From a virus (Duplodnaviria; Heunggongvirae; Uroviricota; Caudoviricetes), in IMG/VR virus record IMGVR_UViG_2703718821_000008: DNA of 2,923 nucleotides; one strand, given 5' to 3'. The position numbers and the translations under genes were made by a program. Positions 508-2,738 of the stretch are shown here, one piece after another. How positions within the stretch are numbered: position 1 is the first letter of the stretch; each line of letters begins with the position of its first letter. Under the pieces are notes generated by a model. The model ran no database searches and had not been told where the DNA came from. It worked only from the letters and a program-made list of their open reading frames with translations.

Positions 508-541
508 ATGATAATGTCAACCATAGTGACATCCATTGGTA

Positions 542-555
542 GTAACATTGGTTAC
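542..555. promoter_or_regulatory. Operator-like palindrome O2 GTAACATTGGTTAC
   Basis: Same GTAAC-N4-GTTAC architecture as O1. It is immediately followed by the ATG at 556 and contains a -10-like TAACAT (543..548) about 7 nt upstream of that ATG, consistent with a leaderless repressor transcript. Confidence 0.6.
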
Positions 556-1230
556 ATGAACACTACTATTAGCGAACGCATCCGAAAGCGTCGAAGAGAC
601 ATAGGTCTAACCCAACAGCAGGTTGCAAAGGCTATCGGCGTCACCCGTGTATCCGTAACAAAGTGGGAAAATGGTTCAACAAAACCGGACGGTGAGAATT
701 TACATCTGCTGTCAAAACTGTTTTCCAAATCACCTGAATGGATTCTTTATGGGAAAGATATTCACGATCAAGTCGATGATTTGCGATTGAATCAACTCCC
801 CTACCTTAGTGACAACATCACCCGGTTGCCCGTTTTAACGTGGGAACAGGCTGGTTACTGGGATATGAGCTACCCAGTAACCGAAATCCCTGGTATTAAG
901 AATTGGGTTGATGTCATGACAAAAACATCTGAAAACTCTTTTTTATTGCGCGTTGAGGGAGATTCAATGACAAACTCTAACGGTTTGCCAACGATCCCCG
1001 ACGGCTCCACGGTGTTGATCACTCCATGCTCTGGCAACATTGGGGAGATGGCGGGAAAGATTGTTCTAATCCAACTAGAAGGAATACCAACTGTAACACT
1101 GAAAAAAGTCGCAATTGATGGCCCAAACATCTACCTACTGTCATTAAATCCGCTTTACAAGCCTATAGAACTCAATGGTCGCTACACCATTAAAGGTAAA
1201 GTCTCACAAATCCATCAATACTTAGATTGA
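556..1230 (+). CDS. CI-type prophage repressor: N-terminal XRE-family HTH plus C-terminal S24 (LexA-like) autopeptidase domain; 224 aa (240 aa if started at 508)
   Basis: Track ORF 508..1230. The HTH is LTQQQVAKAIGVTRVSVTKWENG (about 607..675). An Ala-Gly candidate cleavage site sits in the linker (EQAGYW; GCT GGT at 850..855). The S24 catalytic serine motif is EGDSM (Ser codon 964..966) and the catalytic lysine is in VTLKKV. Start 556 is preferred over 508 because it gives a normal-length N-terminus before the HTH and leaves a 91-bp divergent control region; neither ATG has a Shine-Dalgarno. Confidence 0.85.
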   Translation: MNTTISERIRKRRRDIGLTQQQVAKAIGVTRVSVTKWENGSTKPDGENLHLLSKLFSKSPEWILYGKDIHDQVDDLRLNQLPYLSDNITRLPVLTWEQAGYWDMSYPVTEIPGIKNWVDVMTKTSENSFLLRVEGDSMTNSNGLPTIPDGSTVLITPCSGNIGEMAGKIVLIQLEGIPTVTLKKVAIDGPNIYLLSLNPLYKPIELNGRYTIKGKVSQIHQYLD

Positions 1231-2035: not shown

Positions 2036-2114
2036 TTTATTCACGGGTGAGGTAGAGCGCGTGCGCCGGACACGGATAAGAATCCGGCACTGACAGTTTA
2101 CTGAAAGAACATAT

Positions 2115-2130
2115 CCCTGAAAAGTCAGGG
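2115..2130 (+). other. Perfect hairpin CCCTGA-AAAG-TCAGGG in the non-coding block
   Basis: 6-bp perfect stem with 4-nt loop. Other hairpins nearby: GCCGGA/TCCGGC (2065..2070 / 2083..2088), AGCGCACG/CGTGCGCT (2142..2149 / 2187..2194), CCGCG/CGCGG (2210..2214 / 2221..2225). Confidence 0.7.
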
Positions 2131-2261
2131 CATAACACGAAAGCGCACGGCGAGAATATAAGGCTTGTCGTTAAATTTAATTCGATCGTGCGCTTCCGGT
2201 TGTGGCAATCCGCGAAATGGCGCGGCGGTAAGTATGGCTGGGGCTTCCTCCATTGCTCCAG

Positions 2262-2281
2262 AAAATGCACCAAAATGCACC
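2262..2281 (+). repeat. Perfect tandem duplication AAAATGCACC x2
   Basis: AAAATGCACC at 2262..2271 is repeated exactly at 2272..2281, inside the non-coding block. Confidence 0.9.
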
Positions 2282-2343
2282 GGGTTGTCAGGTTGACCAT
2301 GCGCCTGAGTGACAACACCGCCACAACAACCTCTGTTATCACT

Positions 2344-2382
2344 TTTCTGGTGATTCGGCGGAAATGGATATCCGCCATTTTT
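2344..2382 (+). ncRNA. dicF: Candidate DicF-like small RNA ending in an intrinsic terminator
   Basis: The sequence TTTCTGGTGATTCGGCGGAAATGGATATCCGCCATTTTT resembles my recollection of the 5' end (UUUCUGGUGA...) and the GGCGG/CCGCC-U-run terminator of E. coli DicF. It sits between the 124-aa ORF and the dicB-like gene, as dicF does in Qin. The downstream sequence AAAGTGTATTTTGTGATGCGGTGAATGCGG also resembles the K-12 dicF-dicB spacer from memory. The exact 5' end is unknown and the candidate is shorter than the 53-nt K-12 DicF. Confidence 0.45.
2357..2382 (+). terminator. Rho-independent terminator (3' end of the DicF-like element)
   Basis: Stem GGCGGA (2357..2362) pairs with TCCGCC (2371..2376), 8-nt loop AATGGATA, followed by ATTTTT (2377..2382). 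Confidence 0.6.
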
Positions 2383-2549
2383 AAAGTGTATTTTGTGATG
2401 CGGTGAATGCGGCTAAGCGCACGCGGAACAGTTAAAGCTAAAAACAGCGTTATGGGTGATTCTGTATTCCGGCGTTAATTGTTAACTGGTTAACGTCACC
2501 TGGAGGCACCAGGCACCACATCACAAAATTCATTGTTGAGGACGCGATA

Positions 2550-2738
2550 ATGGAAACGTCACTACCAAACGTTAATACGTCTGAAGGGTGTTTTAATATT
2601 GGTATTCTGCTCAGTAACCGGGAGTTTACTGAAGATGCCATCAGGATGAGAAAATATGAGCCTTATCTTCTCAATGATAATTCCATTCTCTCCAGAATTG
2701 CCCTTATTAAACTTGGCATTTTCGGAGGGCAGCAGTGA
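2550..2738 (+). CDS. dicB: DicB-family cell-division inhibitor (62 aa)
   Basis: ATG 2550 with GAGGA Shine-Dalgarno (2538..2542) 7 nt upstream. Translation METSLPNVNTSEGCFNIGILLSNREFTEDAIRMRKYEPYLLNDNSILSRIALIKLGIFGGQQ. The N-terminal half (LPNVNTSEGCF.IG...SN..FTEDAI..RK) matches my recollection of E. coli DicB, which is also 62 aa; the C-terminal half diverges. Confidence 0.8.
   Translation: METSLPNVNTSEGCFNIGILLSNREFTEDAIRMRKYEPYLLNDNSILSRIALIKLGIFGGQQ

Follow-up and report, generated by a model that had tools for sequence, protein, structure and literature searches.

DicF of the Qin prophage of Escherichia coli K-12 is a 53-nt small RNA (sRNA) that pairs with ftsZ and pykA through its 3′ region and with xylR through its 5′ end, as was established by mutation (PMC5069750). 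Its 5′ end is made by RNase E, its 3′ end is reported to be yielded by a terminator with a GGCGG/CCGCC hairpin base and a TTTTTAAAGTG tail, and a 72-nt DicF species is reported to be made by RNase III (PMC5069750, PMC9438474). It is a textbook prophage sRNA whose copies are counted in pathogenic E. coli; for EHEC, four copies of dicF are cited in reviews (PMC7873438). A second sRNA, KilS (b4833), lies in the Rac prophage of K-12; it was found by RIL-seq, was confirmed by northern blot and, according to its authors, can be transcribed from its own promoter, and the paper that describes it does not mention DicF (PMC8175672). Early intrinsic termination in operons or at mRNA 3′ ends is also known to make sRNAs such as SroC and CpxQ (PMC9438474).

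In this study, a stretch of 2,923 bases (the window) was analysed, which spans the immunity region and the early-left region of an E. coli lambdoid prophage; the best-matching complete genomes are 99.4% identical across the entire window. Gene order was taken from the RefSeq annotation of a 99.4% identical locus and from Pfam, and the two sources were concordant. The end of a ydaT-like gene and a P22_Cro-type gene lie on the minus strand. These are followed by a cI-like repressor gene with HTH_3 and Peptidase_S24 domains (LexA family; 514-1230, plus strand), a DUF1391 (ydfA-like) gene (1497-1649) and a 124-aa gene without a Pfam match (1661-2035). After a gene-free stretch of 500 bases come dicB (62 aa; 2550-2738, plus strand; Pfam DicB E = 6.9e-33) and a DUF1482 (ydfD-like) gene (2735-2923). 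Where K-12 has ydfB and ydfC, the window has the 124-aa ORF, a homologue of which is found alongside ydfB and ydfC in strain UTME-9 (L003). When the window was searched for GTAAC-N4-GTTAC palindromes, three were found (494-507, 542-555 and 1304-1317) against 0.10 expected. The first two sit between the cro-like and cI-like genes, and the third, GTAACTTCTGTTAC, is an operator-like palindrome on the plus strand ahead of the left operon. All three are likely to be operators of the cI-like repressor, serving the right (cro/cI) and left promoters. Given that this repressor belongs to the LexA family, SOS-inducible control is implied for the operon downstream, and the plus-strand operon is thus probably both repressor-controlled and SOS-inducible.

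Within this operon, the segment at 2344-2382 (plus strand) reads TTTCTGGTGA-TTC-GGCGGA-AATGGATA-TCCGCC-ATTTTT and lies at the position of K-12 dicF. We refer to it as the short form of dicF. It begins with a single-stranded 5′ tail of 13 nt, UUUCUGGUGAUUC (2344-2356), in which the first 10 nt (2344-2353) are those of DicF and nt 11-13 differ. The tail is followed by a terminator hairpin, GGCGGA / AAUGGAUA / UCCGCC (2357-2376; GGCGG at 2357-2361, CCGCC at 2372-2376), with 6 bp, an 8-nt loop and a stability of -9.6 kcal/mol, and then by an A and five T (2377-2382); in other short forms the A is replaced by C. The hairpin is part of the minimum-free-energy fold of 2330-2400 (-16.2 kcal/mol, z = -2.1), and a terminator scan reported the same structure with 6 pairs, 5 of them G-C, and the tail ATTTTTAAAG. 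The element thus shares with DicF a rho-independent terminator whose hairpin has a GGCGG/CCGCC base and is followed by a U tract. The A after the stem in the window form permits a competing weak pairing, AAAUGG/CCAUUU.

To place the element relative to its K-12 relative, the window was aligned with K-12 Qin, where dicF lies at 3383-3435 of locus L004. The flanks were about 90% or more identical over ~300 nt upstream and ~170 nt downstream, and divergence was found only inside dicF. In the aligned interior, K-12 reads TGA-CGTTTGGCGG-TATCAGTTTTACTCCGTGACTGCTCTG-CCGCCC and the window reads TGA-TTCGGCGG-AAATGGATAT-CCGCCA. The first-pass annotation of this DNA had described a DicF-like element with TTTCTGGTGA and a GGCGG/CCGCC terminator; both strings are where it had placed them, and their flanks align with those of K-12 dicF. 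It had also given the lengths as about 39 nt against about 53 nt. The element is indeed shortened, but these figures are not like for like, because 39 nt includes the T tail and 53 nt excludes it. Compared on equal terms, the element measures 34 nt (2344-2377, plus strand, the counterpart of the 53-nt K-12 DicF) against 53 nt, or 39 against 58 nt with the T tail, and the true shortfall is thus 19 nt rather than 14. The proposal that the central segment of K-12 DicF had been replaced agreed with the alignment, in which the divergence inside dicF coincides with the new centre. The 10-nt centre of the short form does not occur within that of K-12, and the form is therefore a replacement and not a simple internal deletion. 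The element follows the conserved leader and stands ahead of dicB, as expected of a member of the dicBF operon. We are very confident that it is a positional allele of dicF.

It was also considered whether an ordinary terminator had merely arisen after a chance copy of the DicF 10-mer. Hairpins followed by a T run are common (4 such motifs in the whole window against 3.2 expected), and the Rfam DicF model gave no match. On the other hand, synteny with K-12 Qin is exact, with dicB downstream and high identity on both sides, and the conserved block upstream, CTCTGTTATCA, is continuous with the 10-mer. The alignment with K-12 Qin refutes this explanation, to which we give virtually no chance of being correct.

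The Rfam DicF covariance model (RF00039; gathering threshold 48 bits), a missing match to which the first-pass annotation had named as grounds for refuting its proposal, gave no match to the short form at E ≤ 10, whether the whole window or 76 nt around the element was searched. The model was also blank on four other short-form loci (L001, L002, L125 and L129). In positive controls it scored 76.7 bits with K-12, 75.8 with UTME-9, 63.5 with L410 and 61.1 with L376; the latter two carry an ACUCCG loop and are detected in spite of a different 5′ tail. Detection of the ACUCCG-loop forms, set against the blank result for the short form, shows that what defines the model, and the family in practice, is the apical hairpin, which the short form lacks. 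Repression of ftsZ translation, filamentation on expression and Hfq binding are further marks of DicF.

The sequence ahead of the element is a conserved leader common to K-12 Qin (2040-2343, plus strand), and neither of the two ORFs that run across it matches Pfam. Indels of 10 nt and ~4 nt relative to K-12 argue against coding, and we regard the leader as non-coding. A coding explanation for the element itself was rejected on similar grounds: the ORFs that overlap it (2188-2406 on the plus strand and 2037-2378 on the minus strand) have no Pfam match, are absent from the RefSeq annotation and lie in a region with non-triplet indels. At the junction between leader and element, a precursor hairpin, AUCACU/GGUGAU, is predicted at 2338-2354 (plus strand), with position 2344, which matches the DicF 5′ end, in its loop. 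The folds of K-12 and the window are alike in this respect, with the first DicF bases paired to the conserved upstream block. By analogy with K-12, RNase E-type processing would take place at 2344, and the position of an RNase E-made 5′ end in the loop of the precursor hairpin could explain why the first 10 nt have been retained. At the expected RNase E site, the base at -2 is C in all short forms, not A, and processing may therefore differ in them. Further upstream, TAAATT at 2172-2177 (plus strand) is a candidate internal promoter -10 element, with a putative start near 2184; it is homologous to the -10 element before the KilS 5′ end in Rac and does not vary among Rac, Qin, EC4115 and the window. 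From this conserved KilS-type -10 element, a primary transcript of ~199 nt ending at 2382 could arise.

Two further features of this region were observed. A hairpin, CCCTGA-AAAG-TCAGGG, lies in the leader at 2115-2130 and is kept in K-12 Qin with one arm changed; it resembles the boxB of lambda nut sites (GCCCTGAAAAAGGGC). Also, GCGCGTGCGC (2058-2067) and GCGCACGCGG (2417-2426), ~360 nt apart, are complementary at 9 of 10 positions and bracket the conserved non-coding block, as they do in K-12; minimum-free-energy folds left this pairing unused.

Between the terminator and dicB lies a conserved structured spacer (2385-2534, plus strand), which was recovered both in individual folds and when 30 diverse loci were analysed with RNAalifold. 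Its closing helix of 20 bp (2385-2405 with 2514-2534) has several compensatory changes, U-A to C-G and A-U to G-C among them, and its 3′ strand stops ~9 nt short of the dicB ribosome-binding site. The spacer is also found upstream of kilR and other genes. The 20-bp helix, a predicted RNase III substrate, is probably what lies behind the 72-nt DicF species. Its position fits that species (53 + 19 nt), and the same cut in the window would give ~53 nt. When the window was searched with Rfam models, STnc100 (RF02076) matched 2375-2582 at 34.2 bits (E = 4.4e-05), against a gathering threshold of 47; a gathering-level match was absent in the window and in the K-12 locus. The resemblance between the spacer and STnc100 is real, though below threshold.

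To assess target pairing, we used a home-made windowed, accessibility-corrected duplex search against four known DicF targets (ftsZ, pykA, manX and xylR). An earlier procedure, in which full-length sRNA and target were folded in the manner of RNAduplex, had produced huge loops and had scored shuffled sRNAs alike; it was replaced by the windowed search. For K-12 DicF, pairing was predicted with xylR via nt 6-15 (-14.1 kcal/mol), with pykA via nt 26-43 (-12.8 kcal/mol), with ftsZ via nt 31-53 (-9.7 kcal/mol) and with manX via nt 35-54 (-16.0 kcal/mol). As positive controls, the predicted ftsZ, pykA and xylR sites agree with the regions reported in PMC5069750. For the short form, the corresponding values were only -5.7 (ftsZ), -6.6 (pykA), -4.4 (manX) and -7.4 kcal/mol (xylR). 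When 22 control sequences were generated in which the hairpin was kept and the tail and loop were shuffled, 12 of the 22 equalled or bettered the short form for ftsZ, 7 for pykA, 14 for manX and 1 for xylR. The ACUCCG anti-Shine-Dalgarno loop and the 3′ arm, to which the ftsZ, pykA and manX pairing is ascribed by published work and by the K-12 predictions, are absent from the short form and are replaced by AAAUGGAUAU. The DicF 5′ tail UUUCUGGUGACGUU, which holds the xylR seed GGUGACGUUU, is identical in the short form at the first 10 of its 14 nt; the retained 5′ string does not preserve the whole seed, and the 10 bp of K-12 are reduced to 6 bp (GGUGAU). Two suspicions of the first-pass annotation were borne out by these predictions. 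The missing part does hold target-pairing residues, as located in PMC5069750, predicted here for K-12 and lost in the short form; and the target range would differ, with ftsZ, pykA and manX pairing at the level of shuffled controls once the loop and 3′ arm are gone. As far as complementarity is concerned, we are confident that the short form lacks what makes DicF an antisense RNA of ftsZ, pykA and manX.

From these data we propose that the short form is an intrinsic terminator and processing module ahead of dicB, which releases a small RNA unable to regulate ftsZ; we judge this reading to be probably correct. The slot lies in a repressor-controlled leftward (pL-type) operon, between the conserved non-coding leader and dicB, and would be transcribed from that operon or possibly from the KilS-like internal promoter near 2172-2184. 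The GGCGGA/UCCGCC hairpin and U tract would act as an intrinsic terminator and limit how much transcription continues into the toxic dicB. Cleavage in the loop of the upstream hairpin, with a 5′ end at 2344 as in K-12, would leave an RNA of ~34-39 nt, and on read-through transcripts an RNase III cut in the 20-bp spacer helix would give the ~53-nt species. Because the apical loop UUUUACUCCGU (anti-Shine-Dalgarno), the 3′ arm GACUGCUCUGCC and half of the xylR seed are missing, the short RNA would be expected to repress neither ftsZ, pykA nor manX, to act on xylR weakly at most, and to cause no filamentation of the DicF type.

The pairing results also bear on a different proposal, namely that the short form is a trans-acting sRNA with targets of its own, in a slot that serves as a swappable cassette, and that its tail and/or its loop pair with other host or phage mRNAs. 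The architecture is of the Hfq type, with a single-stranded tail, a terminator hairpin and a U tail, and the leftover xylR pairing beats 21 of the 22 controls. Little sequence is left for pairing, however, and the four known DicF targets score at control level save for the weak xylR site. Moreover, no cis site complementary to the loop or tail was found in the window besides the element itself.

The distribution of the short form was examined with a 61-nt query able to seed on the short form only. Among 5426 complete E. coli genomes, the short form was found at 528 places in 442 genomes, all at 95% identity or more, and many of the listed rows were O157:H7. An equivalent query for the long form gave 6695 places in 3970 genomes. 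The O157:H7 strains sampled among the long-form matches carry three or four long copies each; these are different strains from the O157:H7 strains sampled for the short form. E. albertii and more than 40 IMG/VR contigs carry the short form too, and the immunity modules ahead of it vary (a LexA-like cI, RacR and another type). Of 48 evaluable short-form loci, 47 have an intact dicB of 62 aa downstream. Seven single-nucleotide versions were found; two of the changes are in the loop, one is in the base after the stem and three are in the stem, of which two keep a G-U pair. In nearly all copies the hairpin and U tract are intact. The short form is thus a natural allele and not a one-off or private lesion. 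A literature search by hairpin sequence and by DicF variants, which covered part of the primary DicF papers, returned no description of a natural short form.

Two qualifications apply to the retrieval of these loci. In a diversity profile the element was as conserved as the adjacent conserved blocks; this was not counted as evidence of selection, because the loci had been retrieved using parts of the element itself, which inflates its apparent conservation. In addition, the pattern TTTCTGGTGAN{8,38}CCGCCNTTTTT, scanned over 596 Gb of genome contigs, proved too degenerate: most of the 120 loci it listed were chance matches in unrelated phyla, and only its Escherichia matches (E. albertii, E. 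ruysiae and E. coli) were used. Two observations were made on individual loci. In E. albertii NBRC 107761, the short form and another form of the slot, type M, occur in one genome on separate contigs (L129 and L198). The DicB encoded after the short form is mostly a variant with a divergent C-terminal half (...YEPYLLNDNSILSRIAL...), which is also found after long forms, so that its linkage with the short form is loose.

These distribution data allowed us to weigh the possibility that the short form is a decayed dicF, that is, a remnant of deletion or rearrangement in a cryptic prophage whose function is limited to any incidental termination. Every sequence known to matter for DicF targets is missing, the hairpin (at -9.6 kcal/mol) is the weakest at the slot (other forms range from -13 to -20 kcal/mol), and, given that DicF is toxic when expressed (PMC5069750), its loss could be tolerable or favoured. 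The short form was also found in none of 50,697 deposited phage genomes, against 22 for the long form; this absence is uninformative, because only ~2 would be expected by proportion. Moreover, the same form recurs in hundreds of genomes, with several immunity types and in two species, and its centre has been replaced, not simply derived from the long form by deletion. Since the form is frequent and both its hairpin and its operon are intact, a pure remnant becomes less likely, and we regard this explanation as improbable. The low stability of the hairpin also has a bearing on the terminator and processing module that we favour, because termination at it could be inefficient.

To survey the slot independently of the dicF form, a scan was anchored on the spacer motif GTCACCTGGAGGCACCAGGCAC. 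At least six hairpin forms were found in addition to the long form, the short form and type M, which makes at least nine in total. The hairpin base in all of them is GGCGG/CCGCC or the compensated GGUGG/CCACC (in L376, L381 and L418) or GGCGGG/CCCGCC, and the tail TTTTTAAAGTGAATTTTGTGATGCGGTGAATGCGG is present in all; the forms differ in apical stem, loop and 5′ tail. Slot forms were seen in the IMG/VR loci L374, L376, L377, L384, L392, L395, L408, L410 and L011, and Rfam DicF detects only those with an ACUCCG loop. In the Rac prophage of K-12, upstream of kilR, the annotated sRNA KilS (L419 3406-3503, minus strand), which was compared with window positions 2172-2382, has the slot hairpin GGCGGCATCAGTTTTTTTCTTGAAGTTCGGCTGATGTCCGCC as its 3′ end. 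The window itself does not encode KilS (~98 nt, start GGGAGUGCGCC, slot terminator, kilR), since the body and hairpin differ and dicB lies downstream. DicF and KilS are thus positional homologues that end at homologous terminators in a common frame. In three further loci (L376 5046-5234, L408 1171-1359 and L392 4732-4920), isrK and C4 antisense RNA genes rather than dicB are found downstream, within ~250-400 nt of the slot and with Rfam matches above threshold. In the isrK/C4 phages, the slot hairpin and spacer head a different downstream cassette.

The diversity of the slot returns attention to a trans-acting role. Two sister forms, DicF (PMC5069750) and KilS (PMC8175672), are verified sRNAs, and it is because these are real sRNAs that such a role is conceivable for the short form. 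A conserved frame that holds at least nine hairpin forms with varied loops and tails is also the pattern expected from target-driven diversification, and the short form is frequent with its hairpin kept; the apical variability is equally explicable by a lack of constraint. On balance we consider a trans-acting sRNA with its own targets rather unlikely. In a broader and likewise rather unlikely version, the dicF/KilS position of lambdoid prophages would be a hypervariable sRNA cassette with a constant frame of leader, GGCGG/CCGCC hairpin base, U tract and RNase III spacer, in which interchangeable tails and loops retarget host genes; the short form would then be no debris, and would either regulate targets of its own as a functional sRNA or represent a 'disarmed' DicF under selection, with dicB control kept and ftsZ repression dropped. 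The terminator and processing module ahead of dicB stands as our preferred interpretation.

The short form accounts for ~7% of dicF-slot loci in complete E. coli genomes and is marked as an RNA neither by Rfam nor in the RefSeq records examined. Given that it is unmarked and predicted to be unable to regulate ftsZ, DicF copy counts or dosage estimates that rely on position or dicB linkage could be in error. The short form may be viewed as a natural separation-of-function allele, in which the terminator and processing frame are kept and the known seeds are gone, and it could be used as a control to split the cis role of DicF (limiting dicB expression) from its trans roles. If the cassette reading were true, it would be relevant to O157:H7, in which sampled strains have a short copy and others three or four long copies. 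The link between DicF and KilS suggests that the DicF/KilS hairpin family is wider than known, and that a wider family of prophage sRNAs is open to systematic search.

When the short form is set beside the described systems, K-12 DicF is its closest counterpart. Both occupy the same slot in the same operon order (leader, dicF, structured spacer, dicB and a ydfD-like gene); they share the identical first 10 nt, the hairpin base and the TTTTTAAAGTG tail, and the flanking sequence tied in K-12 to RNase E and RNase III processing is the same in the window. The short form differs from DicF in being 19 nt shorter, in nt 11-14 of the tail, in the swap of the apical stem and loop UAUCAGUUUUACUCCGUGACUGCUCUG for AAAUGGAUAU, and in giving no covariance-model match. 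The 3′ hairpin of KilS occupies the homologous slot ahead of kilR, the gene for the cell-division inhibitor of Rac, with the same CCGCCCTTTTTAAAGTG end and the same structured spacer downstream, and the window retains the -10 element that precedes the KilS 5′ end. Unlike the short form, KilS is 98 nt long, has a 42-nt hairpin with a different loop and is without the UUUCUGGUGA tail; from the putative start to the hairpin, the window is longer by ~100 nt. Type M, found in IMG/VR contigs and E. albertii, combines the full DicF 5′ tail with the slot hairpin base, U tract and downstream frame. Type M and the other forms each have an apical stem and loop of their own, 34-42 nt in size, whereas the short form alone is reduced to the stem base. 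With sRNAs of the SroC and CpxQ type, the short form shares its predicted biogenesis, namely early Rho-independent termination inside an operon combined with 5′ processing; those sRNAs have demonstrated seeds and targets, whereas the short form is known here from its sequence.
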